A stretch of DNA of 64,000 bases from Paecilomyces variotii (Eukaryota). The position numbers and the translations under genes are program-made. The notes below the pieces were generated by a model. It saw only the letters and a list, made by a program, of their open reading frames with translations, was not told the origin of the DNA and made no database searches. Shown in pieces: positions 7,134 through 62,678 of the stretch; the first letter of the stretch is position 1, and each line of letters begins with the position of its first letter. The DNA lies in the NCBI GenBank assembly GCA_004022145.1, contig RCNU01000017.1; one strand, written 5' to 3'.

Positions 7134-7156
7134 GTTTAAATTATTTAACTAATAAT

Positions 7157-10100
7157 ATAATAAGAAGAGAAAAAATATTAAGAAATAGTACTAGAGATTA
7201 GTATAGAGAATCTAAATATAATCTAAAGCTTAGCGCTTAACTTAAACTAGCAAATACTACTAATTCTAAGTAATTAAAATTAATAAATAATACTAGTCCT
7301 AATTAGCTTAAACTAATAACTATTATAGGCCTAGGAAATTTAATAAATTTAAAAAATATTATAGACTTTAAGATTTAATAAGAATTAAATATTATTAGTG
7401 CTAGACTTATTATTTTATTAAGTTCTTAATATTAAGTTAATAGTATAGTAATAAAAGCTTTATAAAATATAACTTAAGGATTATTAAAAAAGATAAATAT
7501 AGCTGCAGTTATAGAACTAATAAAATAAATAAATATAGCTCTTAAATCTAGGTCTATTATTAAATTACTTAAACCTTATTAATATTAAGCTAAGAATCTT
7601 AATACTTACTATTATTAGTACTACTATATAGACTAATATTTTATTTATAACATATTAATATTTTAAACTAAAGCTAATAAAGTAAACTATACTACTATAT
7701 TGCTTTTAAATAACTATAAAATAGCTTAAAATTATAGATCTCTTACTTTAGCTATAACTTTATAGTAGAGATTTTAATAATAGCTATTAAATTATCTTAA
7801 GGATTTATAATATTAACCCTAAATAACTGCTATATAATTTTAAAGGCTAAAATAATAGCTAAAATAAATTACTTAAGAATTTTATAATAAATTTAAGCTT
7901 TATAGAGCTAAATTAGCCTTAGAAAATAATATCTAGAGCTAAATCTTCTTCTTTATATTATAAGAAGATATATAGAACTAATTATTTAAATATATATATA
8001 TTCTAACTAATTTAGACTAATTAGCTTTTAAAGCTATAATTATTAAATAAAGTCTTAAAAACTCTATTAAATCTTAATTAAAAGACTTTAAGAAAAAGGA
8101 ATAATCTTAACCTTATATAAGAGAAAAAGATTAATTTTATTTATATATATAGGACAAGCAGAAGAATAAATTATTTTAATTAACCTTTATAAAGACTTAT
8201 TTAAAATATAAGAAAGGAGGTTTAAATCTTTAGAAAAATAAGAATAGTTAATAAAAGAAGAGTAATACTTTAATTATAAGAAGAATAAATATATTAATAA
8301 ATAGTATCTTAATAAGATAAGGAAGGATTTAAAACTTCTTAAAGATAATTAGATAAAGATATTAGGCTTAGTATATTTTAGCGCCTTAAAGATATAGAGC
8401 TAAAGTTTATAACTTTAGTAGGTATATTAATTAAGGGTTATATTATAAAAATAAATATACTTCTTAATTTTTAAGCATATGCTAACTTTATTAATTATAA
8501 CTTTTTATTATATTATAAATATAAGAGGTTTTTATAAAAGCTAGTAGGTTATGCCTTATAAATAGGAGATTAAATAATATTAATTTATAGCTATTTCTCT
8601 ATTATTATTAAGGTAAAGGACTTAGAGAAAAAGATAAAATATTATAAGATTAACTTCTAGATTATTTTTATATAGGAATCTAATATAGTTAAAAAAATTA
8701 GAATATAATCTTAAGATTACTATAGTTATACTATAATAATCCTATTATAGATTAAAAATGCTTAACTTAAAGATATTAGTAAGAGGCTTTATTTTAGGTT
8801 AAGATTTAAACCCTATAAGTATTTATAGAGATAGTATAAAATTAATTAATTTATTATATATAAAAAGAATATATTAAAATAGATATAAAAGAAATTTAAC
8901 TTCCCTTATATTATATATAATTTTAAGATATCTTTTTAGAAGAGAGAGCTAAAATATTATCTCTGCTAGAAGATACTAAGATTTATATAATTAATCTAAT
9001 TAATAGCAAGTTACTACTATAAAGGCCTTTATACCTATACTTTATTAGAGAACTAGATATATTATAAAGATATCTAAAAGATATATAATAATAAGGTTAA
9101 ATCTAGGTTTTAATTAGCTTAGCTAAATTATTAATTATTTTTATTTTTAAAAAAGATAATAAATTATGCTTATATATTAATTATTAAGGATTAAATGCCT
9201 AAATAATTAAGAATTACTACTTATTATTATAAATAAATAAGACATTAAATTAATTAATAAGTATAAAATTTTTTATAAAACTTAATTTTTAAGAAGCTTA
9301 TTATAAAATCTATATATAAAAGAGAGATAAATAGAAGATAGTATTTAGAACTAGATATAGCTATTTTAAATATCTTATTATATTATTTAAACTATATAAT
9401 ACTCCGGCTATATTTTAAGCTTATATTAATATAGTATTAAGGGGCCTATTAAATATCTACTATATTATATACTTAAACAATATCTTAATCTTCTTAATAA
9501 ATAAGAAAGAATATAAATAGCATATCTCTAAAATGCTAAGAAAATTTTATAAATATAATTTATATATAAAGCTAAGTAAATATAAATTTTATAAGAAAGA
9601 AGTTTCTTTTTTTAAATTTATTATAAGATATAATAAAATTAAGATAAATTTCTTTAAGATTAAAATAATTTATAATTAGCTTATACTAAAAACTTTTTAT
9701 AATATTTAAGTCTTTTTAAGATTTATAAGTTTTTTTAAGAGATTTATCTATAATTATTTCTCTATTATAATACTATTAATAGACTTACTTAAGGATAGTA
9801 AGAATAATAAGAAGATAGGCTTATTAAAATAAATACTTAAAATATAAAAAGTATTTAAAAATTTAAAAACTATATTTATTAAACTGCTAATATTATAGTA
9901 TTATAATTTAAAAAAGCTAATTATAATAGCTATAAATACCTTAAGATTTGCTTTAGCTATTATTTTATTATAGCTTATAAATAAGGTAATAGAGTAATAA
10001 TACCTAATTATATATTTCTTAAGAAAATTTACTAAAATTAAATATTAATATAAAGTATATAACTAAGAACTATTAGTAATAATTAAAGCTTTTAAGTATT

Positions 10101-10935
10101 AGAGATACTATTTAAATAGCAATAAATACCCTGCTTAAATATAAACTAATTATATAAACCTATACTACTTCTTTATAATAAAGACTTTAAATAATAAATA
10201 AATAAGATAGGCAGAGTTATTAGTAGGCTATAACTTTTATATTAAATATAAGCTAGATTATTTAAATATAGCTAATATATTATCTTAGAGACTAAATTAT
10301 AAACTCTTAGAGAAAAAGCAGAAAATTAGACTATTATTTACCCTATAGAAGAAACTAAAACTATATACTTTAAATAAAGAAGATAATATAGGTAGTTATA
10401 AATATTTACTACTAAAACTATTAGTATTAAAGATTATTAATAGGGAGATAATTTAAAATCTTTTAAAGCCTAATCTTCTAGAATTACTTAAGTAGCTCTA
10501 GTAAAGGGACGCCTTTATACTAAAGAAGATTAATAATTTAAAGACTAATTAATCTAGAAGCTTTAAATAGATTATAAATAATAAGAGTCTGCTATAAAGA
10601 TAAGATTAAATTTATATTTTAAATAAATATTTACTAAAGTAAGAATTATTATAAATTTATTATAATAATCTATATATTAGCTATTAAAGAGTTAGAACTA
10701 TAAAAAAACTACTTAAGTAAAAATTTTATTAGCTAAATATATAGAATAATATATAGAAATATATAAAGACTTATAATATCTATAAAAAGAATAAAGTTCT
10801 TAAATATAAGCTATATAAATAGTTAAGCTTATTACTTATAGCAGAAAGACTCTAGCAGAGTATATTAATAGACTTTATTATTAGCCTGCTACTATTAACT
10901 TAATAGAGAGTTAAATATAATGCGATCCTAGTAAT
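7157..10935 (+). pseudogene. gag-pol of A-left (gag, PR, RT, RNase H, integrase N-terminus), RIP-inactivated and truncated
   Basis: Colinear with minus-strand 55064-51292; ends at the deletion junction inside the integrase core. Confidence 0.85.
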
Positions 10936-11758
10936 AAAGACATTTCGTGTTAATATAAGGACAGATATACTATTGCTTTAAATCTTATACTAGGGCCTTT
11001 AAATAGTAAAGATATATCTCCTATAAGATAGGAGAAAAGTCTTTAATTAAACTCTCTAGGCTAAAAAGATTTATAATAGAGTCTATCTTAAAGGCAGTAA
11101 GATAATTTATTATTATATTAGTATTAGCAATAATAATTAATATTATTATTTTAATAAGAGCTAGATTAATCTAAGAAGGAGATATTTTAATAATAATCTT
11201 AACTCTGGTAATAAAAGTTATAATAATATCTTAGGTTTTTTAAGTCTCTATATTAAGAACCTCCTTTATTTTTAATCTTTTTTATAGTTTTTTAATTAAT
11301 TAAATAAGAGTTTTTTTTATTATAAGTATAATAAGAGTAATATTATTATAACTATATTTTAATCTCTAAAAAAAATATAATAAATTAGCCTATACCTCCT
11401 TATATATAAGAGGAATTATATTGCTAAATATAAACTAATCCCTATATATTTTAGATAAGAGATACTCTTTTATTAGAGAGTTCTCTATAAATAATCTTAG
11501 TAAAGATACTTTACTACTATTATTAATAGCGGTAAATAAAGTAATCTATAAAAAAGAAGTTATTAATTCTAATATTATATTAGTAATTAAAGATATAAGA
11601 GAGAGAGATAGTTTATTAAGCTGCTTATTATTTATATTAAGCTAATAATTAAATAGATAATCTTTAGTTAATAGCTATAATAGCTTAGGGCTAGCTATAG
11701 AGGCCTTATTAAGAAAGCCTAGAATAAATAAAATATGCTTAAAGCGCTTAAAAGATAT
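10932..11758 (-). pseudogene. N-terminal part of the family-A antisense ORF (second copy)
   Basis: Reverse complement aligns to 48803-49630; keeps TGT codons at 10961-10963 and 10940-10942. Confidence 0.7.
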
Positions 11759-12168
11759 TATTATATTAATTAGCACTATTATATAAACTTAAAAGATTAT
11801 AACTTATATTAAGCATATATACAGGATTTATAAAAAAAATAACTTAAAAATTCTATTTTTAATACGCCTATATAATTATTAGCTATTTCTATATTTAAAT
11901 TATTAAAAGCAGTTTTAAATAAACTGTAGAAATAAGAAAAGAATAGCTTAATATATAGATAAGAAAATAAGAATTAGTTAGTAAAAAATAGAAATACTCC
12001 TAATCTCCTAGATAAAAATATTAAAATAAAGCTAATATTAGATAAATTTATATAATAAATATATTTTAATAATAACTTACTACTATTACTATAGTTATAC
12101 TTAAATATTTAAATCTATATAATAAACTTTATATAGCTTAAGATAAGCCTTTTAATAAGGGGAAATAT

Positions 12169-12525
12169 TATTATAAACTAGAGCTATAATATTTAATCTA
12201 GACCTACTAAAACCTAGGATAAATAATAAAAGATAATAAGATAATTAGATCTATGTATAATAGTTAAATTAGCTAATTATAAATAGAGCTATTAAGATTA
12301 AATTATCTAGATAATCTAGTAGAATAAATAGATAGATAAATAACTCTTAAAGAAATAAAAATTAAATAGATTAGTAATTTATTCTAATTATTACTAGACT
12401 TAATCTTTAACTTTATTATATATAGACAGTTACTCGCCTGTATCTCTACCTCTTATCTTATATTCTGTTTAACTAGTCTGACTAGTTACTTCTGATAAAG
12501 AGCTTTCTTACTCTAGCTCTTTATA
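12169..12525 (+). repeat. 3' LTR of A-left
   Basis: Direct repeat of 6777-7133, preceded by the purine tract AAGGGGAAATAT. Confidence 0.93.
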
Positions 12526-15500
12526 ATTATTAACCTTCTTTATATAAATAGCTATTAGGTTATAATTATTATATAATTAGTATATTATTATCTTTATAAC
12601 TATTATATATAATTACTTATTATTATAACTATTAATAGGCAGAATCTCTACTAAGATTACCTTATTAAGAGTAAATAGATTAAGGAATTACTAACTACTA
12701 TTTACCTATAGAAGGATATAAATATAGAGAAGTCTTTATTTCTAATACTTAATTATAAAGATATAGGCTTTATATTAACTAAAGATATCTCGCTTAATAA
12801 TATTATCTAAAAGATAGTTTAGCTTTATTTAAAATACTTATATAATTAAATTAAGATAAGTATAAGTATCTTAAATTAGAACCCTAGTATTATCTTAAAT
12901 AAGCTTATTCTTAATCTTTACCTAATATAGATTTACTATAAATATAATAAAGAAAGTAAGCTTATTATATTATATTATAATAGCTATAAAATTATAATAA
13001 TACTTTTAATAATAATATATACTTTTTATAAATATTACTAGTAGAATTACTTATTAGCTTATTTTAGCAGATATTAACTAATTAAGTAAACTCTTATATA
13101 GTTTTTAAGCATAAGTACTTAACTATATCTAAGAGTATTTCTTAGTATATAGCTTAGGCTAATTTCTCTATATAAAATCTAGTTTTCTTTTCTTAATTAT
13201 AATATAGATATTAATAATAAACTACTAAAAGAAATTAGCATTTTAATATAGAATATTAAATAAACCTTTACGTAAGTATATTAACTACTATACCTATATT
13301 TAATTAATTAGCCTATTTTATTAATAAGGATTATCTTAATCTATTATCTTAATTAATTATATAGCCTAATAATAGCCTATTCTATTATTAAGGTAGAAGA
13401 GAATATAATAAAGTAAGAGATATAGAGAATAGATATAATAAATATTTATTAAATATTAATTATTACCTATATTACAGAGAGCCTTTAGGATATAAAGATT
13501 AATAACCCCTAAAATATTAGATAGCAGTTATTTATTAGGCATATAATTAAAATAGAGGCAGATATTATAAAAGCTAGCTTAAGAATATTTACTTAATATA
13601 TCTAGACTTACTAGTATAGCTAGCATATTAGGGATAAACCTAATAACCTTATAAGCAGATATAACTAGATTAAACTATTAATTACTGCTATTTAAAATAA
13701 TAATATATATCTATATATTTAACTGAAGTAAATCTAAAGAGAGAGTTCTTATAATATTCTTAGTATAGTAAAATAATATATAGAATAGATTTAACTTATA
13801 GATACTATAGTTTAATTATTTTATAATAACTATAGCCTGCTAATATAAGATTAAATTATTTTAAATATAGATCTTATAGGTAAAGGAAGAATTAAGAAGG
13901 TAAAAGCTAATATAAATAAGGTTAGCATCTATAAATAAGAGATATATATTAGTATATATATAATATAATAATGCAGGGCTTATATCTTATTAGCTAGAGG
14001 CCTTTAGTAGTAATATATAGTTTTATTAATCTAAAAGATATAATTTAATTTATTTAAGCCTAGATAATTATCTCAGTTATAGCTAATAGAAATAAATACT
14101 AGAGAGTAGTTTAATTAGTAAATATAGGACTAAAATAGCTTTAAATTAATATTATTTATACTAAAATAATAATAGAATTTAGTATTTAAAAAAGCTAAAA
14201 TAGAATTTAAATATATAGAGCCCTTTTTACAGCATATATTAAAGAATATATTATATAAAATTATAATTTTATAATACTAATAAAGAATACTATAAAAGAA
14301 ATAGATTTAATCTATTTACCCTAGATTTAATATATCTTATTCTTTAATATAAGAAGAAAAGGTAATAAAAATATCTTATATATACTAATACCGCTTATAA
14401 TAGATATTATAATAATAATACCTGCGCTAGTCCTTAAGAAGAAATATATAATATATATAATAGATTAAGTTAGATAAAAAGCTTAAGCTTATACTTATAT
14501 TTTATATTTATACTTATAGTTAAGCCTTATAATAATCTAACTAGCATTAATAATAATTAATATAGATATTATAAGATAAGGATATTACTATTTAATATAT
14601 ATTACAGTTCTATAAGACCTATAAGGTTACTAATAATATAAGTATAGAATTAGTTAAGTAATAATTAGCATAGTAACTAGTATAATAGTTTAAATATTTA
14701 TTATATTTATTAAAAGCAGATATTTAATTATTATAAGAAGTATAATACTTATAATCTATAAATAATTATAGTATACTATTATAAATAGTTATTTAATAAT
14801 CTATATATTTAATATATTAGCAAAGAATAAGTTTATAGATAGGCTCTATATATTGCCTATAATAAGTATTAAGGATAAGTATAAGCATAGGTATAAAGAT
14901 AAGTAAAGAAGCAGATATTAATAATAAATATTAAAGATTTAAAATAAATATATATTATAAAGGCACTAGTAGCCGCTATTAATATATAAAATAGCCTAGT
15001 ACTATAGTAAACTCTAAAGGATTATAATATTATAAAGTAAAAATAGAGATAAATCTTATAGATAAAGTATTTCTTATAATAGAAGTAAAATATATATATA
15101 TTTATAAAATAAATTAAATATTAAGATAATAATTAATACTTAATCCCTATAATTAAAAAGAGTAATAGACTATAATTATAATAATAAATAATGCCTAATA
15201 TCTAGAAGAAGCTATTAATAACACTAAATAAAGATATAGAGCATATAATTATAAAAGATTAGAAGAATAGCATATAGTAGAAATAAAAAGTTAAAAATAA
15301 AGAGTATTTAGTATATACTATTAAAGGCAGTATAAAAAATTTAGGCAGAAAAGCAATTTTAATAGGATATAAAAGCTTATATACAGGTGCAGGAAGTACC
15401 TAAAATAAAAGATAGTATACCTAAAATAGTAAGCAGTTAGCTTAAAACCGCAAGCGGTATAGAATAGCAGCAGCAGAACAGATGTTAAAGCGTGCATTTT

Positions 15501-28913: not shown

Positions 28914-30598
28914 TCAACCATCTGAACTTCGTTGAGAAGACAGATAACCACCGGGATCGTGTTTGACCCTTGCTGCATCAGCCAAACCGGGGTAAAGGTC
29001 AGCCCATTCTTTCCCAATGGACCAGTTATTCAGATTCCGCAGGTGCCTTTCGAAGACAGGGTTGATCAAGAGCTCCTCAGAATCTGGAGAAGACAGGAGA
29101 CAGTCTGTGGCTTCATACGGCCAATTGACGGAGATAGTGCGTGTCCACGGGACAAACCATTCATCGAAGGGATAAGACTGCCAGGACATCACGACTCGAT
29201 CGCGCAAACGAGGCCAAGGAATATAGTCGACCCACGCGGGGTGTGGAGTCAATAACTGAGACGGCCGCGGTGTCAGCCATTCTGGCAAACGTTCATAGTT
29301 CTGCTGCGTGGGGTAGATCTGCCATCTCATGAGGAGGAACATTACATAGAGGACAGCTACTTGTTCGGGAAGCGACGCAATATCCGGGAAGGTTCGTAAG
29401 ACGTCCGTAAAGACCTTGGAGATGGGATGGGAGTAAACACTTTTCTCCGGGTTCAGGAGAGATGTGATACTAGGATACGGCGGGCCAACCAGTCGCTGTC
29501 TCGAGACTCCTTCTGCTGCTTGCCGCTGACGGTCACGGAGGAAGTTCAGAAGAACACTGTCAAGGGGACACGTCGGAGGAACATTCTGGATAGGAGCAGT
29601 GAAGGCTGTCAAAGGGGATTCTGCTGACAGATTGTTTGCCAGTTGCGGATCTCCAGGTGAGGCGGTTGTCGGCCCCGGACTATCTGGGGTGAGTCGGACA
29701 TCGTTCACCTTCGGTATCTGCTCAGAGCCGTCCAACAAGAAGTTGAAACCAAGCCTCTCTCCGGATTCGCCGAAATCAAGTCCATGAGTCAGATTATGCC
29801 GCTGGTAATTCAACGCTGTCGGTATAGGCCAAGGTTGTTCCACGCCATTATTAGGCCAACTTCGACGGAGTCCGACAAGAGCCGACAACTGGTCTATAGG
29901 AGAAGGAGTCCTGGCACTCGTTGTTGATTGTATATGTGGTTGTCCTGCCGGTAGCGAGCTCACACTGCTAGGGGTGCAACCATTGCTTTCTGACGGCGCA
30001 GGAGGTTGGAGCGGAGGGCGAAGTTCATGCTGAGAGAATGTTGCAGGGGGATCTGTTCCCGACGAAGGAGACCGACTGTTAGCCAGTGCAGAGATATGAG
30101 ATAGTCAGGAGAATTACTTGAGATTCCACTTGTGCGAAGCAATGGTTGTAGAATGTCAAGGACCTCTGCTAGGCGTTTCTTGATCTCTCGATTCTCCGCT
30201 TCAACCGCCTCTTTCTCCTTCAGCGCGACTTGTAGATCGAGATAGGGCTTCTGCGACGACAGATCTCGAACCTGCTGCTGCAATGCTTCAATCTGAGCCT
30301 TTGTCCGCTCTCGAATGGCTCGCTGTGCTTCTCGATCATTGGCGCGCTTTTTAGCCAGCTGCTCTGGAGTCAGATTGGCGACACCTCGTGAAGGAGCGTT
30401 GGTCGCCTTTCGCTTTCTCTTTGCGAGCGGAGCAGTTCCTGAATCAGGTGTTGATTGAACCGCCTCGGGAGACCCATCGTTGATGAGATCGTCGTCCTCA
30501 ATGCCGCTCAGTCGCGATGAGCGGAATGATGGGTGCTCGTCCCCCCGTGAAGGAGCAGCATTGCCGGTGACAGCGTAGTTGTGGCCGTCTCCTGGCAT
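28914..30598 (-). CDS. bZIP transcription factor with a C-terminal DUF3425-like domain
   Basis: KKRANDREAQRAIRERTK followed by a zipper; PHPAWVDYIPWPRLRD and NLNNW motifs; intron 30053-30117 joins the two ORFs in frame. Confidence 0.88.
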
Positions 30599-42629: not shown

Positions 42630-43492
42630 GATGTTAATGCAATCTATGAATACGGTGCTGTTCCTCGAAATAGAGGATATGCAGATGCAATGATGAGAGA
42701 TCTTGTAGCAAGATATGCAGATGCTATGTAGTGAATGCAGTTATGCGTAGTGAAATTGAATGGATTGATGGCAGAGAGATAATTCTCTCCTCGAAGACAC
42801 AGAACCAACAGCTCTAATATACATCCTAGAGGTCTCCAATACTATTCCCAGTACGTTAGGTGAGCTTCGATGTCTATAGTTACCATGTTAACTGGATACT
42901 GCTTCCTGCTGTGTGATGTCCCGAATAGGCATAACATGAGATTAAGTTACAGGTACCATGGAGTAGTTCCTTAGGCACCTCTATTCGCTGCGAAAAGGCG
43001 GTGGGTTGGTCGCGAGGTCGCGAGGCGGCGTCTCGCGAGGTGGCGAGGTTTTTGTTACCAGTAGATTACTAGTAAATTACTATTTTATATTAAATTTATA
43101 CTAATATATATTAATAGGGAATAAAATCTAAAATTTTTAAATCTGGCGGGGTAGTAAATACAGGTAAATCTTATCTCGCAGGGCGGTAAGATTGTAATCA
43201 CTGTATTTTATACTAAATATTACTAGATTTACTAGTAAGGTTTAATTACAAATAAAACAGCTTAGTCATAAAATACAATTATACCGCCCCGCGAGACTAG
43301 GTAAATAACTGTTAGATCTGTATTGAAATTAAGCAAATATAGGCTATTATTACTACTAAATAAATCTAGATTTATTAATAATATTTAATATTTTTTAATA
43401 AATATTAATTTTATAAATTATTAATATATTTTAAATATATTAGTATATATTAGTAATTATTTAATATATTAATATTTTATTAATAATATTTA

Positions 43493-43726
43493 TGTTAAGG
43501 TATAGGCTCAGGAAGCGGGTCAGAATAAATAAAATAAGGTAGTTAATACTAGGACTAGCTATAAGATCTCTATTTAGCTAATTTAGACTAGAATAAGCTA
43601 TTATAGGCAGGCTTAGTAAATAAGATATAGCTTAAGAAATTTAAATTTAAATTAAGCTATATGCTAAAAATATTTTTATAAGATTATATAATTTTTTATA
43701 TAATTCCTTATACTAGCACTATAATA
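43493..43726 (-). repeat. 3' LTR of element C
   Basis: Starts TGTTAAGG on +; homologous in inverted orientation to 15-226; followed by ATACTCCCTTTCTT (PPT on the minus strand). Confidence 0.8.
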
Positions 43727-46664
43727 ATACTCCCTTTCTTAAAGTTAAGCTCTATTAAGACTATCTTTAAGCTTTAGCTTATTTAAATAGCAATAATAAA
43801 AATTTATAATAATCTTCTAAATATATTACAGATAATATATAGGCTTTTTAATTAAATTATTATAATCTAATTATTTAATAGTATATTATAATTAAGAGCC
43901 TCTATACTTATAATATTCTTATTAAGAGTCTAAAATATTTTTAATAACTTATTTTTTAAGACTATTAACTTTAATAGGTAATAATAAAGATTATCTCTAT
44001 CTAGGCATAAGGTCTTTAATAATAGGATAAAATAGGCTAATATTAAATATAGGATAAATATATATTAAGGCAGGCAGATTAAGCTAATAAATATATAGGC
44101 TAATAATTTTAGTAATATAAAATAAGCTAAGATTTTTTTAATTAAATTTTTTTTAAGGGCGCTAAATATAAATATTCTAAATATTTAATTAAATAGACTA
44201 TTCTATATAATAATAGCAGGCTAAAGTTTAATAATAATTAATCTATTTTTTATAATAGGCTTAGGCAATATAAATCTAAGTATAGATATAATTTATAATA
44301 TCTTATATCTTTTTAATAAAGGCTTTAATATTTTTAATAGCAGGCTAGTTTATAAGCTAAATAAGCTTAAATCCTATATATAGATAAAACCTATAATTAA
44401 TAAAAAAAGGTAATATTTTAATAGTCTTAAAATAATAAGAGTTTAATATAAACTTAATTAGAGATAGCTAATTAACTTAATTATCTTATAAATAATTAAT
44501 ATAGATATATAAATATTATTTTAAAATAATATTTATTCTTTTAATTTAATTATTAGTCTTAAGATAATAAGTAATAAATAATAGATTTATAATATCTAAA
44601 TATTAGATTAAGTATTTCTAAAAAGCAGTAATAAATTAAGGGTCTTAGTTAAATATTATAATTTTTAATAGCCTATAAAGCTTCTATATATAATAGATAT
44701 ATAATTATATTATTTTTTTAATATTATAAATAATCTAGTAGAGAATAAAATATCTTATCTTTATAAATTAGTTTATAATAACTAGTATAATATTATAATT
44801 TTAGTAAGATATAAGTTTAATAATAAAATCTATTAAGATATTTTATTAAAAGTATTTAAAAATAAAAATCTAGCGCAAGATTTTTTAGCAGCCTTTATTT
44901 AAGGGTATAATATAATAGTAAATATAATAATTCTAGATCTAATAATTTATATATTAATATATATTTAGCTAATAATATTTTTATAAGATTAGGTTATAAA
45001 GCTTATATTTTTTAAAATATCTAGATATATACTTATTATAATATTCTTATAATAGATAAGCTTTTAGCTTATTATAATTAAGAATATATAAATAGTTTTT
45101 ATAATATAAATATCTTTCTTTTTATTAGTAATTAACTAATATAATCTTAGGGTAATAATTAGCTTTATAATCTAAGGCTTATAAAATAAACTATATTAAG
45201 TTATTAAATAGATAAGCTATATCTAGCAAATCTTTAATATTAAGTAAGTATTTTAATTTATTAAGCGTAATAGGGGAATTTAACTAATTTTATTTAATAG
45301 GCTAAGCTACTTTTTTAATAGGCTAAATAATCTCTTTAATAGACTAGATTATCTCCTTAATAGATTAAATAATCTTAATAAACTAGTTAGGCAGTAGGGT
45401 AAATTAAATAGATTCTCTAGGCTAAATAGATTAATTTCTTAGAGTAAATTAAATAAATATTCCTATAAATTCAGCAAGATTTTTAATCTCTTAAATTATT
45501 AAATTAGTAAAATAAATATACCTTATTATTTAATTCCTAGTAATAGCTTTTAATTTTAGAGATCTCTAAATCTATAAATTAAAGTTCTCTTTCTTTAAGA
45601 CTATTTAGCTCTAATACTATAGCTATTTATCCCCCTCTTTAAAGAGATTTTCTAACCTCCTAGTTAAGGCATTAAGCTTTACTCCTTACTTTTTAAGTTA
45701 GTATATAATTTAAAAATTAAACTAAGATAAAAACTTAGATTAATAAGCCTATTACTAGTTTAGCAGCTTAATTAATATAAAATATTTTAGATTATAATAA
45801 TTTATAATAACTTTAATTAGCAATAATATATCTTTAAGCTTAGGGCGCTATTTCTTAAAGCAGTAAATAATTATTAATAGCTTTTTATTATAAATCTTAT
45901 AATTATACTTTATAATAAAGAGCTTTTAAAAAAAATATAATAAAATATAGGATTTCTTTATTATTATATTAAAATATAACTTTAGCTAATATATAGTTAA
46001 ATAAGTTAATTTTAACTATAACCTTATAGGTTTAATTAAATAGCTTTAAGATTAGGGCTTAAATAAATACTTCTTTTAGGGCTTTAAAACTAGACTAATA
46101 GATAATTATTTAATTAAAGAGAATTCTCTTTTAAGTTAAGTTTATAAATAATATAATTATCTTAGAAAAGTTATAAATAAACTAATAATAAAAATTACTA
46201 AACCTAATAAAGGCTTATATATTAATTATATAAATTAGGGTCCTTTATTTAATAATTATTTTTACCTTATCTAAGTTTATTTTAATATAGTCTTAGCTAA
46301 TAATAATGCTTAAAAACTTAGTCTTAGAGATAATAAACTTATACTTTTAGATTTTTATATATAGGCCTACTTTATATAGCTTTTATAAGATAATATAAAT
46401 ATATTAAATATATTTAGAATAGGTTATATTATATATTAAGATATTATTAAGATATATAATATAAAAGATATTAAGATAATCTTATAAGATATTATTAATA
46501 AACTATTAGAATATTACTAATACTTTTATTAAGCTAAATAATATTATTAATAATTTAAATAGATTAAGTTAAATATAGAAGGTAATTAGATATTTTTATT
46601 CCTTCTTAATATAAAGGTTATTAAATATAGAAATAATATTAATCTTTATAAAATACTTTATTCC

Positions 46665-46812
46665 TGTAACTAGGCGAAGCCGTAGAGATATAAGAGGTAA
46701 GAAGGTTAATTCCTCTAAACTAGGGATGCTAGTGCTAAATAGCTGCTAGGGCGGTTTAATACTGCCACTTCTAAGTGGGCGGTATACTTACAGCAGTGCT
46801 ATATCTATAATA
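46665..46812 (-). repeat. 3' LTR of element B (148 bp)
   Basis: TGTAACTAGGCGAAGC...; direct repeat of 62531-62678. Confidence 0.93.
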
Positions 46813-48020: not shown

Positions 48021-48392
48021 TGTAAAGAGCTAGGGTAAGAAAGCTCTTTATCGGAGGTAACTAGTCGGACTAGTTAAACAGAATATAAGATAAGAGGTAG
48101 AGATGCAGGCGAGTAGCTGTCTACGCATAGTAGAGTTAAAGATTAAGTTTAGTAGTAATTAGAATAAATTGCTGATCTGTCTAACTTCTATTCTTTTAGG
48201 GGTTATTTATCTGTCTATCTATTCTACTAGATTATCTAGATAATCTAATCTTTAATAGCTCTATCTATAACTAGCTGATTTAACTATTATATATAGATCT
48301 AGTTGTCTTATTATCCTTTGTTGTCTATCCTAGGTTATCTATCCTAGGTCTTAGCAGGTCCGGATTAAGTATTATAGCCCTAGTTTATAACA
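48021..48392 (-). repeat. 3' LTR of A-right
   Basis: TGTAAAGAGC...TTATAACA on +; direct repeat of 55088-55459. Confidence 0.96.
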
Positions 48393-48802
48393 ATATCCCC
48401 CCCCGTTAAAAGGCTTATCCTGAGCTGTGTAAAGTTTATTATATAGGTCTGAATATTTGGGCGTAGCTATAGTGACAATAGTGAGTTGCCGTCGAGGCGT
48501 GCTCGTCATATGAATTTATCTAATATTGGCTTTGTTTTAATATTTTCACCTGGGAGATCAGGAGTATTTCTGTTCTTTGCCAACTAACTCCTGTCCTCCT
48601 GCTTATATATTAAGCTATCCTTTTCCTATTTCTGCAGCTCGTTTAGTGCTGCTTTCAATAATTTAAATATAGAAATAGCTGACAGTTATACAGGTATATT
48701 AAAAATAAGATTTTTAAGTTGTTTTCTTTGTGGGTCCTGCGCATGCGCTTAATATAAGTTATAACCCTTTAGATTTATATAACAGTGCTAATTAATATAG
48801 CA

Positions 48803-50032
48803 ATGCCTCCCAAGCGCTCTAAGCGCATTTTATTTGTTCTGGGCTATCCCAATAAAGCCCCTATAGCTAGCCCTAAGCTATTACAGCCGCTAACTGAAGA
48901 TTATCTATTTAATTACTAGCTTAACGCGGACAATAAACAGCTTAATAAGCTATCTCCCCCTCTCGCGTCTCCAACTGCCGATATAATATTAGAACTAATA
49001 ACTCCTTCTTTACAGATTACTTTGTTTACTGCTGTTAACAGTAGTAGTAAAGTGTCTCCACCAAGGTTATCCGTAGAGGACCCCCTAGTAGAGGAGTACC
49101 TCCCACCTGAGATATATAGGGATCGGTTTATATCCAGTAATATGGTTCCTCCTATGTGTGAGGAGGTATAGGCTAGTCCATTACATCCTCTTTAAAGGTT
49201 AAAATATAATTATAGTAATACCGCTCTTACTATACCTATAATAAAAGAAACTCCTACTCAGCTAGCTAAAAAACTATAAAAGAGGTTAAAAGCAAAGAAG
49301 GTCCCTAGCATAGAGACCCAGAGAACCTAAAACGCTATTATAACTTCTATTCCTAGAGTTAAGGCTGCTGTTAAAATACCTCCTTCTCAGATTAATCCAG
49401 CTCTTACTAAGATAGTAATATTAACTACTATTACTAATACTAATACAATAATAGGTTATCCTACTACCTTTAAGGCAGACCCTATTATAAATCCTTCTAG
49501 CCTAGAAGGTTTAACTAAAGACTTTCCTCCTATCCTGTAGGAGATATATCTTTGCTATTTAAAGGCCCTAGTGCAGGATCTAAAGCAACAGTATATCTAT
49601 CCTTATATTAACACAAAATATCTCTATTATAAGGGCCTTCGCAAGCTGTACATTCCTATACTGCTGGCGTATAAGGCCAAGTTAACTTATATTCAGAGTC
49701 TTAGCCAAGAGGCTTACCTCTCAGGTAATTTAGAGTCTTTTAATAAGGCTGTAAATATATACATTTTCTCTGTAGAAGTATATATGCGGAAATCCACATT
49801 TAAGACTGCTAGACGCCAGGTTAATGCTGCTGCTGTCCCACTAACCCTATTATACTTTAAATTAGAGTTGTTATATCTCCTTTAAGAGTTATATTAAACG
49901 ATCTGTTTATTAAACCGCAACGTCTTGCATATAGCGAATATGCTTGCCTAGTTATAGGGACTGCCTCTATTCTCCAATGAGGAGGAGGAAGACATTATTA
50001 AGGGGTTTCACGGTGGTGAAGTAGCTGAGTAG
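48803..50032 (+). pseudogene. Antisense accessory ORF of element A (~410 codons; basic N-terminus, putative Zn2Cys6-like cluster), RIP-inactivated
   Basis: ATG CCT CCC AAG CGC TCT AAG CGC; a single frame with no frameshift that includes the tracked ORF 49571-49885; about ten internal stops, all TAA/TAG and so RIP-revertible; acidic EEEED near the end. Confidence 0.72.
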
Positions 50033-50225
50033 GATAATTTTATGGGCCTGTATTTAGATTATTGGCCGGGGCTAGCCCGGTCGAATTAAATTATTCTTAT
50101 CAGAATTCCTTTCTTCTATATCCTCTTTAAAACTCTTAAACCTTGTGGGAAAATTGGAGAAAGAGTAATACATATAGCAATATATTTAATAATAATTAAA
50201 AAACCCAGTAGGAGAAAAAGTACTA

Positions 50226-53200
50226 TTACCTATCTATCTTACTTCGCTTTCTAGTTCTTAACTCTCCTTTGCCTTGCCTTCGCTTAGGTGGCTTGCCCAT
50301 ATTAAGAGCCTTGCTGGGGTTCTTACTGCGATACTCCTTTAAAGCTTCAGTCGCATATATAAGATCTTCTAATATCTACCATAAGTTTTTATATAAAGGA
50401 TATCCTTTCTATTTTATTAGGAACTATTTCTTCCTACAAAAGGTCTGTTTACTGAGAATTTCTTCTACCTCCTATTTTTATTCTCTATTAATAAGAACTG
50501 GATCTAGCTATTTAGGTTCTGTCCCTTCTTATTAATTATAGGGTTTTAGCAGAGATATATAGAATACTAGATATATCCTGCCTAGGCTCTTTGGCAGTTG
50601 TAATTAGTATACTTACTTTCTGATTATCTCTATTATTTTGTAGGGTCCAGAAAATCAGTAGTCTAACTTCTTATTTAATTAATTAGTTTGTAGATTTTTT
50701 ATCAACAGAAGAACTTAATCCCCTATCTTATATAACTTAGGTATATATTTCTTATTATAGTATTTTGCTTGCACCTTAATAGCGCATTACAAATATTTCT
50801 CTAACTTTACCCTAATATCTAATAATTCTTTAAGTTATTCCTTAATAGCGGGAATATTCAACCTTATTCTTGTGTTATATTTGTCCTAGCTATTAGGATT
50901 AAAGCTGTAAAGGGCTTTGAATGGCGAGCATCTAATAGTGGAATGCTTCATATTATTATAGGTATACTCTGCTGCACCCAGTAACGATACCCAGTTGTCT
51001 TAACAATGATTTATATATACTCTTAGGTAATACTCCAAGGTCTGATTCTGGCACTCTATCTGCCTATCTATCTATAGATAAAAAGCAGTGCTTATTAATC
51101 GGGTAATTTATATACACCGATAAAGCTCAGTCTAGTATTTACTAGTAAATACCAATCCCTGATTAGAAACAATTAATGTCGGGGGATTAAACCAGTAATA
51201 TACCCTTTCTATAATTAGGTCAGCCAGGTCTTCTGCTGTAATTATTTCTTGGATTAAGATATATAAAGCTATCTTAGAGTATCGGTCTATAACTACTAGG
51301 ATTATATTATATTTAACTCCCTATCAAGTCGATAGTGGCAGGCCAATAATGAAGTCTATTAATATACTCTGCCAGGGTCTTTCTGCTATAGGCAGTAAGC
51401 TCAACTACCTATATAGCTTATGTCTAAGAACTCTATTCCTTTTACAGATATTACAGGTCTTTATATATTCTTATATATTATTCCGCATACCCGGCTAATA
51501 AAACTTTTACTTAAGCAGTTCTTCTATAGTTCTAACTCCTTAGTAACTAGTATATAGATTATTATAATAAATTCACAGCAATTCTTGCTTCAACAAATGT
51601 TTATTTAAGATATAAATCTAATCCCGTCTCTATAGCAGACCCTTACTATCTATAGTCCATTTAGAGCTTCTAGATTAATTAGTCTCCAAATCACTAATCT
51701 TCTTTAATATAAAGGCGTCTCTTTACTAAAGCTGCTTAAGCAACTCCAGAAGATTAGGCTTTAGAAAATCTTAGATTATCTCTCTATTAATAATCTTTAA
51801 CACTAATAATCTCAGTAGCAAGTATTTGCAACCACCTATATTATCTTCTTTATTTAAAATATACAGTTTTAGTTTCTTCTATAGGATAAATAGCAGTCTA
51901 ATCTCCTGCTCCTCTTCTAAGGGTTTATAGTCTAGTCTTTAAGATAATATATCAGCTGCATTTAAACAACCCGGCTTATATTTAATATAAAAGTTATAGC
52001 CTGCCAGCAATTCTGTCTATCTTGCCTGCTTACTGTTTAAAGTCTTTATTATGAAGAAATAGCGCAGGTTTATATAGTTAGTCTATACCCGGGCAGGGTA
52101 TTTACTGCCATCTAAATAATATCTCCAGTACTTAAAAGCTTTAACTATTGCTAATAGTTCCTAGTTGTATATTTTATATTAACATTTAATTTCAGTAAAT
52201 TTCCTTAAGAAGTATGCAATTGGGTGCTACTGCCTTATCACCTTACTTATAAGCTACAGTAAAATAACAGCTAAAATAAATCTTAAGGCATCTATAGCTA
52301 CTGTAATCAGCTTCTTCAGATTATAATGCCGCAATACTAGCAGTTCAATAAACGCAGTTTTTAAATCTTCAAACACTTTTTATACTTTAGGTATCTATTC
52401 TAATAGGCCTGTCTTTTTACTATTCTTACTGCCCTTAAGCAAGTTTATTAATAGCATTATAATAGAGGAGTAATTATAGATAAATCTCCTGAAAAAACTT
52501 GTAAATCTTAGAAAGATTTAAATATTATAAAAGGTCTTTAGTATAGGCCAATTACAAATTGTTTTAATCCTAGAAGGATCTATCTTAATCCTATCGCGTC
52601 CCATAATAAATCTAAGGAAAGAAACTTCCTCCTTGTAAAATTCGCATTTACTCAGCTTCGCATATAAATTATGCTTATAAAGTCTTTCTAGCACTTCAGA
52701 GATATACTATTTATATTCTTTCTTATCCATTAAGAAGATTAAGATATTGTCTAGGTATATAATGCAGCAGATATCTAATAGGCCCCTTAGTACTATATTA
52801 ATATAGGCTTAAAACATAGCCGGAGTATTACATAGTCTAAATAGTATAATAAGATATTTAAAATGGCTGTATCTAGTTCTAAATGCTATCTTCTATTTAT
52901 CTCCCCTTTATATGCGGATTCTATAATAGGCTTCTTAAAGGTTAAGTTTTATAAAAAATCTTACACCTACTAATTAATCTAATATCTTATCTATTTATAG
53001 CAGTAAATAGCAATTCTTAATTATTTAGGCATTTAGTCCTTAATAATTAATACACAAGCGCAGTTCATTATCTTTCTTAGGGATGAAAATAATTAGTAAT
53101 CCGGCTAGGCTAGTTAAAGCCCAGATTTAACCTTATTATTATATGTCTTCTAGATATCTTCATAATATATCTAGTTCTCTAGTAAAATACAGGTATAGAG

Positions 53201-55064
53201 GCCTCTATAACAGCGACTCGCTATTAATTAGATTAATCGCATAGGTCCTAATATCTTCTAACAGGGGTAATATTTTAGCTCCCTCTTCTAAAAAAACATC
53301 TTAGAATTATATATAGTATAGGGGAAGTTAAATTTCTTCTATATCTATTTTAATATATTCCCCTTGTATATAATAGATCAGTTAATTCTGCGCTGTCTCT
53401 GTAAATACTTATAGGGTTTAAATCTTAACCTAGGGTAAAGCCTCCTGCCAGTATCTCTAAGTCAGGTATCTCTAATCTATAATGAGATTATTATAATATA
53501 ACCATAGTAATCCTAAGATTATATTCTAATTCTTCCTAACTATGTTAGGTTCCTATATAAAAATAATCTAAAAATTAATCTTATAATATTCTATCTTCCC
53601 CTCTAAGTCCTTTACCTCAATAATAATAAGGAAGTAGCCATAAATTGGCATTATTTAGTCTCCTATCTATAAGGCGTGACCTATTAGCTTTTATAAAAAC
53701 CCCTTATATCTATAGCATAGTAAAAAGTTACAGTTAATAAAATTAGCATATGCTTAAGAGTTAAGAAGCGCGTTTATTTTTATAGTGTAACCCTTAATTA
53801 ATATACCTATTAAAGTTATAAACTCCAGCTCCGCACCTTTAAGGCGCTGGAGTATATTAAGCCTAACGCCTTTATTTTTAAGAGATTCAGAGTCCTTCCC
53901 TATCTTATCAAGATATTATTTACTAATATATCTATTCTTCTTATAATTAAAGCATCGCCCTTCTTTTATTAACTGTTCTTACTCCTCTAAGGATCTAAAC
54001 CTCCTTATTTTATATTCTGAATAGGTCTTTATAGAGATTAACTAAGATAATTTATCCTTCTACTTATCCCGTGCATATAGGTAGAATCGGTCTTTTTCCC
54101 TTACATAAGGTTAGGATCGTTCCTTCTTCTTAAAGTCCTTTAATTAAGATTTAATAAAGTTTTTAGGACTCTGTTCAATAACTATAGCCTCAGAAGCTAG
54201 TTAGTCTAAATTAGTCAGAATATATACGCACTTAAATAACTAGTTCTATATATCTTCTCATAGTATAAAGAAGAAGGTTCGGCTCTAAATATTATCCTCT
54301 AGGGCTAATTTAGCTCTGCAAAGCTTAAATTTATTGCAAAATTCCTAAACGGTTTATCCTAGCTATTGTTTTAGCCCTTAAAATTATATAGCAGCTATCT
54401 AGGGTTAATATTATAGATCCTTAAGATAATCCAACAGCTATTATTAAAATTCCTACTATAAAGTTATAGCTAAAGCAGGAGGTCTATAACTTTAAGCTAT
54501 TCTATAGTCGTCCAAAAGCAACACAGCGGTGTAGTTTACCTTATTTGCTTTAGTTTAAAATGTCGATATGTTATAGATAAAATATTAGTCTATATAGCGG
54601 CACTAACAGTGGTAAATATCTAGATCCTTAGCTTAGTATTAATAAGGTTTAGGCAGTTTAGCAACAGACCCGGATTTAGGGGCTGTATTTATTTATTTCA
54701 TCAGCTCTATAACCGCAGCTATACTTATCCTTTCTAATAATCCCTGAGTTGTGTCTTATAGAGCTCCTATCGCTGCGCTATTGACTTAATACTGGGAACC
54801 CAGCAAGGTAATAAGTCTAGCACTAGCAGTATTTAATTCCTGCTAAATCCTAGGTTCTATAATACTTCCTAAATTTATTAGATTTCCTAGGCCTATAATA
54901 ATTATTAGTTTAGGCTGATTAAGACTAGTACTACTTACTAATCCTAATTGCTCAGGATTAGTAGTATTTGCTAATTCAGGTTAAGCGCTAGGCTCCGGGC
55001 TATATTTAGATTCTCTATGCTGATCTCCAGCACTACTTCCTGATATCTCTTCTCTTCCTAATAT
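50226..55064 (-). pseudogene. gag-pol of A-right (gag with CCHC, PR, RT, RNase H, IN, chromodomain), RIP-inactivated
   Basis: EGRCFN knuckle ~53910-53965; ALL(D)S.AYANF ~53740-53772; YLD(D) 52746-52757; DFIIGLP ~51337-51357; SGPYKII and chromodomain EVEEIL...KGYP ~50330-50650. Confidence 0.92.
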
Positions 55065-55087
55065 ACTGTTGGTTGAGCAATTTAAAC

Positions 55088-55459
55088 TATAAAGAGCTAG
55101 GGTGAGAAAGCTCTTTATTAGAGGTAACTAGTCGGACTAGTTAAACAGAATATAAGATAAGAGATAGAGACGCAGGCGAGTAGCTGTCTATACATAATAG
55201 AGTTAAAGGTTAGGTTCAGTGGTAATTAGAATAAATTACTAATTTATCTAATTTCTATTCTTTTAGGGGTTATTTATCTATCTATCTGTTCTACTAGATT
55301 ATCTAAATAACCTAGTCTTTAACAGCTCTATCTATAACTAGCTAATCTAATTATTATATATAGATCTAGTTATCTTATTATCCTTTGTTATCTATTCTAG
55401 GTTATCTATCCTAGGTCTTAGCAGGTCCAGATCGGGTATTGTAGCCCTAGTTTATGACA
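55088..55459 (-). repeat. 5' LTR of A-right
   Basis: Begins TGTCATAAACTAGGG on the minus strand. Confidence 0.96.
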
Positions 55460-58400
55460 ATATTATTTAATTATGCTAGTGTTGCTATAACAGCATATAT
55501 TAAGCATATTAATATTAGGTATCTTATTAAGTCTAGAAATTATTATTTCTGTCTATTCTTATAGTTCTATAGTATTTCTCTTACTTAAATATTATAGTAA
55601 AGTCTTAGTCTTTTTTATAGAGTAGATTATTCTGCTAGCTATATATTTAATTATATAACTATAATATAGCCTTTATCCTTATTATTAGGCATAAAGATAC
55701 TTATTAACAATATATTAATAGTTAATAATAATATAGGATAAGCGGTAGTCTGCACTAAATAAAAGAGATTAAGCTAATACTCTGCTAGAGTTGGCTATAG
55801 GTATAGTATAAGGATAAAATAGGTAAAATATTGCTAGTACTAGCTAAGTAGGCTAATACCCCCTCTTCTAATAATAAATATAAAGAACCCTTAGTAATTT
55901 TATTCTTATATTCTTTTATCAGCTCTAGCGTATCTCTGAGATTATTAATATTATATTATATATTATATTTTAGTCTTTAGCCTTTCTATTAGACTAGATA
56001 TTCTATTATAATATATTAGCAATAATATTAGATATACTTATCTATAAGCTTCTTAATTTTATAAATCCTTATATTATCTTTTTTTATATATAGTGCCGGC
56101 AGCAGTTATAGCTATCTATTAAAAGAGTTATCCCCTGGCAGAGCCGGCTTTAAGTATACTATTAAGAATATATTATATACTCTCTAATATAGTAGTAGCT
56201 CTAGCTTATATACTAATTTTCTTATATATTAAATTACCTTAAAAGGTCTAATATACTATTGTAAAAGCTTCCTTCCTAATACCTTTATTACTGGTATTAA
56301 ATAGCCTTTATAAAGATATAGATAGACTTAATTACCGGGCATAAAGGCAATATAAAAATATTGCTAGTTATAATATTACTTAACTAATATAGCCGCTATT
56401 TTAATAGCTTCTCTTGCATTAATTCTATATATAAAGCTCTATTCTAGTTCTATATTATATATAAGGTCTATAGATATAAGTAGCTTAATGCTATATACTA
56501 GCTAATATAGCATATATTTTATAGATGCACTTTTGCTGCTATTAAAAGCCTTTTATAGCTATAATAATACTAAGGGCTAGTCTATTAGAGTATTTAGCGC
56601 GCTGAAGAAATACCTAAGAGCTATTTTTACTTACTAGTTTATACGCTCTAATTATTTATCTATTTATAGGTAAAATGCTATAGAAAATAATAGCTAAATA
56701 TTTAAGCATTTAAAAAGTTCCTTCTATAAGTTAAATAAAAATTTAGGGTCTCTGTCAGAGACAATTTTCTGTAATAAACCTTAGTCCCTAATATATAAAT
56801 ATTCCAGTAGGGCTGCTGCCTAATTAGCTGCAATCTAAGTAGCTTTTCTTAGAATAAATATTATTCTCTTAGTAAACTTACACATTATTAATATAGCTTA
56901 ATTAAGGCTATTTCTTATTTTAGGCAGGCCTATAATAAAGTTAATAATTAGTATATTAAATAGGATTAGTAGTATTATAATAGGCTGCATAGACTTAAAG
57001 AGCTAGTATTAATATATCTAATTTACTATATATTTAGGGCAGTAGGCAATATAATCCTATACTAGCTTAAATGCCTTATAAATAGCTAAGCTATTTAGTC
57101 TATTTAGTATCTTATTAACTCTAGGATAATTAACTTAGTTATAAGCGAGCTATAGTATCTCTAGGACTACTAATTATAGAATATATAGATATTAATATCT
57201 ATTATACCTATTAACTAAATATAAAAGACTATCTTCTATCTTATATAGTAGTATTACCTCTAGTTTATTCTATAGATTATTTAAAATTTTACTCTATTTA
57301 GAATCTGTTTAATAGCCCTTTACTACTTTCTCCTTAAACATAGGGCTTATCTTAACTAGGGAGATATAATAAATATCTGTATTATTATTAATATTGGTAA
57401 TAAAGATATCTGTATCTTTAATATCCTCTAGTAGAGAAGCATATAGTTCTACTATAATAAATAGTAAATATAACAGTATATTTAGCACTATATTAGTTTT
57501 ACCGGGCTTATAAATAAGATTTAAGTTAAACTATTAGATATATTATACTATAAGGACTAGATATAAGTTAGTCTGCTCTATTAAACTAGATTTTAGTATA
57601 ATCTACTTAACTATTACTAAGATAGCGCTATAATCTATAAACACTATAATAGTTAATTTTAATACCTTAATAAGATAGCGTATCTTCCTAAGTATTTATA
57701 CTAAGTATATGACCTCTAATTCTGTTAGCTAGTATCTTATTTCTACTAAGTTTAACTGCCTTAATAAGAACAGAATTGGCTATATTTTTAACCTGCTTAA
57801 TATTACCTTAGCTAGCAGGCTAGCTGCTAAAAGATAATATTTATCTGCTAATATTTTATTATATAAGTAGTATACTATTACACTAAGACTATATCTTAAT
57901 ATATCTGCCTTAAAGCCGCCTACCGCATTAAGATTAATATAAAATAGCCTATTTAGCAAGAAATAGGCTAAAAAAGATAAATCCTAGAAATATTATTTAA
58001 TTTCTTAGAATAACTATAGCTCTTATTTAATTAGAAGGTCTATTTAGATATTTATTATAAATTTCTAGCGCAGCTTATCCTTAATAAAACTAGAATATAA
58101 TAATAATATCTTATAGTCCTATAAAGGGCCGGCAATAATTATATATCCTAATATATACTAGCGGAACTATTCTATAAGGGCAAAAAAATACTTAAGATTC
58201 TTTAAAGTAGTAGGAAACAATAGGTCTATTATAGTCTTTATCTTCTCTTCTAGATTAGCTATATTAAAGGCATTAACCTATTAATCTAATAGTATTACTA
58301 AGGGAAATCTAATAAAGGATTTCTTAAGATTTAGTACGATATTAAGCTCCTATATAGTTAAAAAGAGTATATACAGATACTCCTTATAATTATTTAGTAT

Positions 58401-62530: not shown

Positions 62531-62678
62531 TATAACTAGGCGAAGCTGTAGAGATATAGGAGGTAAGAAGATTAATTCCTCTAAACTAGGGATGCTGGTG
62601 CTAAATAGCTGCTAGAGCAATCTAATACTGCCGCTCCTAAGTAGGCGGTATACTTACGGCAGTACTATATCTATAATA
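62531..62678 (-). repeat. 5' LTR of element B (148 bp)
   Basis: Direct repeat of 46665-46812, followed by ATTCC. Confidence 0.93.

Follow-up and report, generated by a model that had tools for sequence, protein, structure and literature searches.

Element A and its antisense gene

The DNA analyzed here, a stretch of 64,000 nucleotides from contig RCNU01000017.1 (referred to below as the window), contains in its right-hand AT-rich block a long terminal repeat (LTR) retrotransposon, element A, at positions 48023-55463 on the minus strand. Its LTR pair, the domains of pol, a weak chromodomain and a polypurine tract (PPT) next to the 3' LTR identify it as a chromovirus-type Ty3/gypsy element of the Tf2/chromovirus class that has been degraded by repeat-induced point mutation (RIP). 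The source names of the homologs described below point to a Paecilomyces-like genome as its origin. In antisense to gag-pol, element A carries a frame of 410 codons, hereafter the aORF, between the end of pol and the 3' LTR; it is almost certainly a real accessory gene of the element inactivated by RIP. This conclusion is drawn from the homologs of its product, the RIP-compatible differences from them, the stops standing where relatives have Arg, Trp or Gln, and the ends that the frame shares with its relatives. The LTRs and a second, left-hand copy of the element were found by BLAST of the right-hand AT-rich block against the window. The features of the locus are as follows:

48023-48396, minus: 3' LTR of element A, a 374-bp repeat 90.6% identical to 55090-55463, with ends approximate by a few bases
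48397-48404, minus: G-run of the polypurine tract, abutting the 3' LTR on its inner side; sense strand ...TTTTAACGGGGGGGG
48405-48802, plus: stretch of about 400 bp from PPT to ATG, presumed from position alone to hold the promoter and 5' untranslated region of the antisense gene
48803-50032, plus: antisense accessory gene (aORF), 409 codons and a terminal TAG, with 10 internal TAA/TAG stops from RIP
49547-49651, plus: six-cysteine cluster, all now Tyr codons (residues 249, 252, 264, 273, 276 and 283)
49652-49972, plus: helical region of the aORF, corresponding to predicted helices 132-151, 154-183 and 196-219 of the homolog P0006
49973-50029, plus: acidic C-terminal tail SNEEEEDIIKGFHGGEVAE, kept in the homologs P0004, P0006 and P0007
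50033-50225, no strand: 193 bp that separate the stop codons of the two converging genes, aORF and pol
50226-55088, minus: gag-pol, a single RIP-degraded frame with 113 stops in 1622 codons (7.0%)
50325-50471, minus: chromodomain remnant at the pol C-terminus (PF00385, E 8.2e-4; 19.7 bits, below the curated cut-off of 25.1, in RIP-damaged sequence)
50538-50723, minus: SH3_Tf2-1, Pfam match above cut-off
51432-51596, minus: Integrase_H2C2, Pfam match above cut-off
51996-52379, minus: RNase H (RT_RNaseH), Pfam match above cut-off
52614-53084, minus: RVT_1, Pfam match above cut-off (the coordinates of all four pol domains with matches above cut-off were computed from residue ranges)
55090-55463, minus: 5' LTR of element A, partner of the 374-bp repeat
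10932-11758, minus: aORF remnant of the left copy, codons 1-276, within an inverted copy at 6766-12531 (plus)

Reverse transcriptase, RNase H, integrase and a C-terminal chromodomain, the last below its cut-off, were thus found within one pol, as in chromoviruses. The gag-pol frame runs from 55088 to 50223 and closes with ...KIDR and a stop doublet (50228-50223). From there to the PPT the spacer measures approximately 1.82 kb, in agreement with the roughly 1.8 kb given in the first-pass annotation of this DNA. The aORF lies within the spacer on the strand opposite gag-pol, and its position, its strand and its real, conserved coding sequence are those of an antisense accessory open reading frame (ORF) between pol and the 3' LTR.

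The frame opens with MPPKRSKR and contains 11 stops (6 TAG, 5 TAA and 0 TGA), the last of which is the terminal codon, compared with 22 to 51 stops over the same interval in each of the other five frames. None of 2000 mononucleotide shuffles had 11 stops or fewer (mean 25.9, minimum 12), and the stop density of the aORF is 2.7% versus 7.0% in the gag-pol of the same element. Serine, proline and threonine together make up 29% of residues 1-240 and 11% of residues 241-410. The antisense frame of 410 codons, its start, its interruption by TAA and TAG alone, its S/P/T-rich N-terminal half and its acidic tail had all been described in the first-pass annotation and were confirmed. A candidate AT-hook, in which GYP (residues 14-16) would be a mutated GRP, was tried and dropped, as the left copy reads TTT at this site, which RIP cannot reach from CGT.

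An exhaustive phmmer (HMMER) search with the window frame against 1.84 billion representative proteins returned four matches:

P0004: 207 residues, E 5.8e-70, hypothetical protein of Paecilomyces variotii
P0005: 82 residues, E 2.8e-23, from a 952-bp JGI/IMG contig
P0006 (KAL1854635.1): 243 residues, E 8.1e-20 over query residues 231-409, hypothetical protein of Paecilomyces lecythidis
P0007 (KAJ9302331.1): 125 residues, E 5.8e-5, hypothetical protein of P. variotii

KAJ9271474.1 is the other P. variotii accession among the homologs, besides KAJ9302331.1. A word-seeded protein search with the window frame, reading through stops as X, gave no match at E<=0.01, and the same type of search with P0006 and with a two-sequence profile (A2) retrieved P0006 and P0004 alone, with no wider family. 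A scan of metagenome contigs with A2 produced 315 pattern matches, none of which was confirmed by tblastn. Altogether, the antisense protein family appears to be new, and within the reach of these searches it is restricted to Paecilomyces.

The homologs differ in how much of the gene they preserve. The P0004 gene model derives from a copy of the element family with fewer mutations, has Tyr at three of the cysteine sites and skips 23 residues, and P0006 provides a stop-free reading of 243 residues. These two proteins are 46% identical in pairwise alignment and share the blocks DFPPVPR, the Cys cluster, LSGDLESF and GLPPFSD, while the N-terminal linker is unconserved; in the alignment of the family, the block EAYLSG(D/N)LESFNKA stands out within the helical region. 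The C-terminal ends of P0004, P0006 and the window frame coincide, and the N-terminus of P0006, MPPIRRRGRGRPRK, begins with MPP followed by basic residues, like the MPPKRSKR of the window. The P0007 gene model consists of the diverged last 43 residues of the antisense protein and a protein-kinase-like fragment (Pkinase, E 0.003); it may be a piece of the gene lying next to kinase-like sequence, outside an element in that isolate.

The differences between the window and P0004 were then assessed codon by codon, asking whether each window codon could be reached from a codon of the P0004 residue by C>T or G>A changes alone. This was the case in 63 of the 71 differing columns, where 1000 shuffles gave 14.4 on average and at most 27, and only 7 of the 71 columns were compatible in the reverse direction. 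All five window stops that align to P0004 fall on residues from which RIP makes stops (R, W, Q, Q and Q). Together with the left copy, the homologs and these RIP-compatible differences bear out the first-pass proposal of a protein-coding antisense gene carried by the element. The conservation also speaks to the idea that the antisense transcript itself is what matters, through double-stranded RNA or transcriptional interference with gag-pol, and that the open frame is secondary. A possible regulatory role of antisense transcription is raised in the available part of a review of such genes (PMC7264820), but blocks and six cysteines kept at 46% identity, with shared start and stop positions, indicate conservation at the protein level and render this explanation very improbable.

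The six-cysteine module

The first-pass annotation had read TAT and TAC codons in the interval 49547-49651 as RIP products of seven cysteine codons, spaced C-x2-C-x11-C-x-C-x6-C-x2-C-x6-C. Such codons are indeed present with that spacing, at residues 249, 252, 264, 266, 273, 276 and 283. P0006 contains exactly six cysteines, at its residues 93, 96, 108, 117, 120 and 127, and all six align with TAT or TAC codons of the window, leaving residue 266 as the only one of the seven proposed sites that does not resolve to Cys. Four of the six sites have additional Cys support in P0004, P0005 or the left copy:

Residues 249 and 252: Cys in P0006 only
Residue 264: Cys also in P0004 and P0005
Residue 273: Cys also in P0004 and the left copy
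Residue 276: Cys also in P0004
Residue 283: Cys also in P0005

At the seventh site, residue 266 (49598), the left copy and P0005 have Cys, but P0004 and P0006 both have Arg. Two TGT codons had been reported in the left copy as surviving true cysteines, and both were found, at 10961-10963 (= 49598-49600) and 10940-10942 (= 49619-49621). The first of these coincides with residue 266, and because both less-mutated relatives have Arg there, sequence comparison identifies it as a RIP intermediate in the path CGT > TGT > TAT rather than an ancestral Cys. The sole Cys codon remaining in the cluster of the window itself, TGC at residue 251, aligns with Arg in P0006 and is likewise read as a RIP product of an Arg codon. 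Based on the Cys positions of P0006 and the Arg ancestry of residues 251 and 266, the ancestral motif is reconstructed as C-x2-C-x11-C-x8-C-x2-C-x6-C, with six cysteines.

By comparison with P0004, Tyr is no reliable proxy for Cys in the aORF, given that the 16 window tyrosines that align to P0004 correspond to 7 Tyr, 4 Arg, 3 Cys and 2 His. Another possible reading is that the aORF is a chance open frame in AT-rich, RIP-mutated DNA whose tyrosines were cherry-picked into a cysteine motif. There are 17 tyrosines in residues 241-410 to choose from, Tyr 268 and Tyr 275 lie within the span and had been passed over by the first-pass annotation, and one of the sites it did pick, residue 266, was wrong. 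Nevertheless, four homologs with E values down to 5.8e-70, the coincidence of all six P0006 cysteines with picked tyrosines, and a RIP compatibility far above that of shuffled sequences refute this explanation, to which we assign a negligible chance.

Nothing functional is produced from the aORF of copy A, as RIP has left a Tyr codon at each of the six Cys sites and has introduced 10 internal TAA or TAG stops. Any activity discussed below thus refers to intact copies of the gene.

Copies of the element and the window setting

The left copy (6766-12531) is inverted relative to element A and more heavily mutated by RIP, with a GC content of 18%. Over the aORF it differs from element A at 165 positions in 827 bp, of which 163 are transitions, and there are 0 indels. 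A deletion of 1,664 bp (corresponding to 49630-51293 of element A, with its junction at 10932/10933) cuts the left copy. It takes out the C-terminal third of the antisense gene together with the 3' end of pol.

Reads and contigs from four sequencing runs were aligned to positions 48397-51300 at a likeness of at least 80%. The raw reads of run X9, from another isolate under the same species label, covered all 30 of 30 bins, with a mean summed depth, computed from the bin table, of approximately 154 in the aORF bins versus approximately 233 in the adjoining pol bins. Because codons 1-276 are retained in the left copy free of indels and the X9 reads cover the region, the aORF belonged to the element while the element multiplied. 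C>T (403) and G>A (340) dominate the changes in these reads relative to element A, versus 66 T>C and 103 A>G, and therefore copy A is one of the less-mutated copies.

Two contig observations concern other forms of this region. A GC-rich contig of 2,298 letters, present in a DNA-type run (X1) and in run X12, tentatively RNA, matches the window only at 48479-48565 and 48798-48843, that is, with one piece upstream of the aORF ATG and one over the ATG and the first 14 codons. The two pieces are separated in the contig by 234 unlike letters, and GC-rich sequence unlike the window follows beyond them. From these matches the contig looks like an un-RIPped, diverged relative with the same start region of the antisense gene. 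In run X4, which bears a different organism label (organism B), a 450-letter contig spans 49685-50134 with 1 difference to copy A, and the other X4 contigs are 10-20% different. This contig reflects either very close relatives under two labels or the same insertion in both.

Within the window, two AT-rich blocks (GC 17-35%) flank a 26-kb island with a GC content of 46-52%. The island holds housekeeping genes for PTPA, an aldo-keto reductase, an actin-family protein, GTP cyclohydrolase II, SGF29, phosphomannose isomerase and coatomer epsilon. The AT-rich blocks show elevated RIP indices, with a TpA/ApT of 1.35 to 1.59 within element A versus 0.76 in the genic part. An ORF of the island, 28917-30104 (minus), carries DUF3425 (E 3.1e-31); one neighbor cluster in the ESM Atlas search described below combines DUF3425 with Zn_clus, and no link of this ORF to the antisense gene was established. 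Short repeats are common to the AT-rich blocks (43481-43704 versus 15-238, 87%; 46667-46812 versus 62533-62678, 91%) and belong to other repeat families. Finally, 45701-46679 (minus), in surroundings of about 17% GC, is the remnant of a different retroelement, the reverse transcriptase and RNase H of which are 36-40% identical in protein sequence to those of the element A pol.

Possible role and relation to known systems

Altogether, we lean slightly toward the explanation that the aORF is a family-borne accessory gene of about 409 codons whose product acts, in intact copies, as a nuclear nucleic-acid-binding regulator. A nuclear protein made from the gene's own antisense transcript is favored because of the domain layout, the convergence on pol and the approximately 400 bp available upstream of the ATG. 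The ancestral protein would have consisted of a basic N-terminus, an S/P/T-rich linker of variable length, the six-cysteine module with a three-helix region, and an acidic, Phe-containing tail. In intact copies, the aORF would have a promoter of its own within the 400 bp adjoining the 3' LTR, and its transcription would converge with that of gag-pol. Its product would enter the nucleus, hold zinc in the six-cysteine module and, through nucleic-acid binding, regulate the expression or integration of the element itself. Such a protein would resemble a miniature zinc-cluster factor, in which a binding module is followed by helices and an acidic tail. The parts of this proposal carry different strengths. 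Zinc binding by the six-cysteine module is probable, whereas service to the element as a nuclear regulator and a Gal4-like binuclear fold of the module are both possible but doubtful.

A more specific form of the proposal holds that the protein is the element's own divergent Gal4-like zinc-cluster transcription factor, which would drive the element or relieve its repression by binding the LTR or host promoters. It would have a basic or AT-hook-like N-terminus, a six-cysteine binuclear module in which the first loop is expanded, a helical dimerization region and an acidic activation tail. This form we consider improbable.

Several observations weigh against these interpretations, and the first group concerns the gene itself. 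Five stops lie in the N-terminal 180 codons, where no less-mutated relative resolves them, and another frame over the same codons has merely 8 stops versus 5 in the aORF. The only relatives found are the four among 1.84 billion representatives, and constraint is judged from very few sequences. P0006 was modeled on a contig of 734 kb and may lie outside any retroelement. The last point leads to the possibility that the aORF is a passenger, that is, a host gene captured as cargo, of which P0006 would be the original, and that it has no role in the life cycle of the element. The P0006 model is stop-free over its 243 residues, its N-terminal region is shorter, with 84 versus 240 residues before DFPPVPR, and P0007 joins the C-terminal 43 residues to a kinase-like fragment, as if pieces of the gene lay outside elements. 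On the other hand, the whole gene from start to stop codon lies inside element A, it was retained during multiplication of the family, and its antisense slot between pol and the 3' LTR is the site of accessory genes in other LTR elements, as described in the available part of PMC7264820. A passenger gene is, on this evidence, unlikely.

The second group concerns the module. Gal4-type clusters have the signature C-x2-C-x6-C-x5-12-C-x2-C-x6-8-C, and the first loop of the aORF has 11 residues in place of 6. The canonical Zn2Cys6 pattern has no match in the six frames of the whole window, which offers no Zn_clus gene for comparison, and Pfam searches at E<=10 with the window frame, P0004, P0005, P0006 and a 60-residue domain returned 0 families, PF00172 included. 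Sequence searches of the PDB gave one chance-level row for profile A1, a five-sequence alignment of the aORF family (8e0o_C, a designed helical repeat, E 0.22), and none for A2. An AlphaFold2 model built on A1 has a mean predicted local distance difference test score (pLDDT) of 48.2; it contains helices at residues 132-151, 154-183 and 196-219 of P0006 with pLDDT 69-82, and falls below 50 across the Cys region. A Foldseek search of this model against the PDB gave no match at E<=0.001. All rows of a wide VIA-align search (best Z 8.9), covering model residues 74-235, were helical bundles of a generic kind and lie within the background of the tool for helical models, and the PDB fold-search alignments covered the helical part only.

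Comparison with the ESM Atlas, which includes P0006, was more suggestive. The clusters nearest to P0006 by features are from Ascomycota and lack annotation (best score 0.91, 63 members), and clusters of 63, 52 and 157 members possibly hint at a wider, unannotated set of small six-cysteine proteins in Ascomycota. Of the 10 nearest structural clusters listed for P0006 residues 84-135, 7 carry PF00172 (Zn_clus), with template modeling (TM) scores by query of 0.62-0.67; all rows are marked "under the bar" and subject to the caveat of the Atlas that over short stretches a TM above 0.5 says little. PF00172 itself is the aligned part in 2 of the 7 Zn_clus rows. The Gal4-type reading of the module is thus a lead provided by predicted structure and not a finding; of the Zn2Cys6-like cluster proposed in the first-pass annotation, the cryptic cysteine cluster is real, while membership in the Gal4 type was not sustained, given the unmatched PF00172 and the first loop of 11 residues.

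The same two shortcomings favor another kind of zinc finger, in which, for example, a C4 knuckle pair (C-x2-C...C-x2-C, 20 residues apart) and two extra cysteines would form an RNA or protein binder that is not Gal4-like, acting for instance as a chaperone or nuclear-import helper of the pre-integration complex. Nuclear or import-type roles have been suggested for plant antisense genes, according to the available part of PMC7264820. Against this stand the C-x2-C-x6-C half and the 8-residue middle loop, which fit the Gal4-type spacing, and the Zn_clus-bearing clusters in 7 of the 10 listed structural neighbor rows. We regard this alternative as distinctly unlikely.

The antisense accessory genes of LTR retrotransposons, both in plants and in the fungal element Boty, are without an assigned function, and the six-cysteine aORF offers a concrete handle on them, because its zinc-type cysteine module is small and joined by helices and an acidic tail, and because a stop-free natural homolog, KAL1854635.1, is open to direct expression and assay. 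Should the protein indeed regulate its own element, it would stand as the fungal equivalent of the regulatory accessory proteins of retroviruses, and if the Gal4-like reading is correct, it would be a zinc-cluster factor borne by a retrotransposon. Additionally, even from heavily mutated DNA, protein motifs that RIP has erased (through Cys to Tyr; Arg to Cys to Tyr; Gln, Trp or Arg to stop) can be read correctly and confirmed in a sister species. Reading them back is useful for the annotation of AT-rich fungal isochores, which gene callers ignore.

With respect to the protein, the aORF resembles Gal4-type factors (PF00172) in being fungal and in arranging six cysteines as two C-x2-C-xn-C halves. 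The middle loop of 8 residues and the second half, C-x2-C-x6-C, are within the ranges of the Gal4 type, basic residues follow the second Cys, and helices and an acidic tail follow the module. It is unlike these factors in its small size, the lack of the fungal_trans middle domain, its location in a retroelement and its first loop of 11 residues. No paper in the literature searched joins LTR retrotransposons, antisense genes and Zn2Cys6.

With respect to the element, P. variotii is reported to have active RIP and to harbor the putative Tf2-type retrotransposon Tn123, located in strain CBS 144490 at 231,587-238,677 of contig 123, mutated copies of which form AT-rich regions (PMC6300479, available in part). 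By description, Tn123 and element A are alike in host genus, in Tf2-type class (SH3_Tf2-1), in length (7,091 versus 7,441 bp) and in their fate under RIP; the part of the Tn123 description that was available (PMC6300479) mentions no antisense gene.

With respect to the arrangement, the first-pass statement that canonical chromoviruses encode only gag and pol was overstated. Boty, a fungal chromovirus of Botrytis and Sclerotinia, has an antisense gene, brtn, of unknown function at the same position between pol and the 3' LTR, as described in the available parts of PMC7264820 and PMC8365987. The accessible text of PMC4227169 mentions brtn and describes the gag-pol domains of Boty, including CHROMO. 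Judged by description, brtn and the aORF are alike in belonging to fungal chromovirus-type Ty3/gypsy elements and in occupying the same slot in antisense orientation. The named relatives of the aORF are all from Paecilomyces (Eurotiales), whereas the hosts of Boty are Botrytis and Sclerotinia. In plants, antisense genes termed aORF-3R include gene23 of maize Grande and those of rice RIRE2, Silene Retand (ORF4) and Phaseolus PvRetro13 (ORF2). Within the available portion of PMC7264820, these genes are described as retained in most copies of their families, with some products nuclear and function unknown, and the antisense gene of Grande as transcribed from its own promoter. They share position and orientation with the Paecilomyces aORF but belong to non-chromovirus lineages and encode unrelated proteins, with an SMC-like or a transposase_28 domain. 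No six-cysteine cluster is reported for them in this review, from which the word "zinc" is absent (PMC7264820, as far as available). An antisense gene between pol and the 3' LTR is thus of a kind already known, and what appears to be new at this locus is the family of six-cysteine proteins that it encodes.

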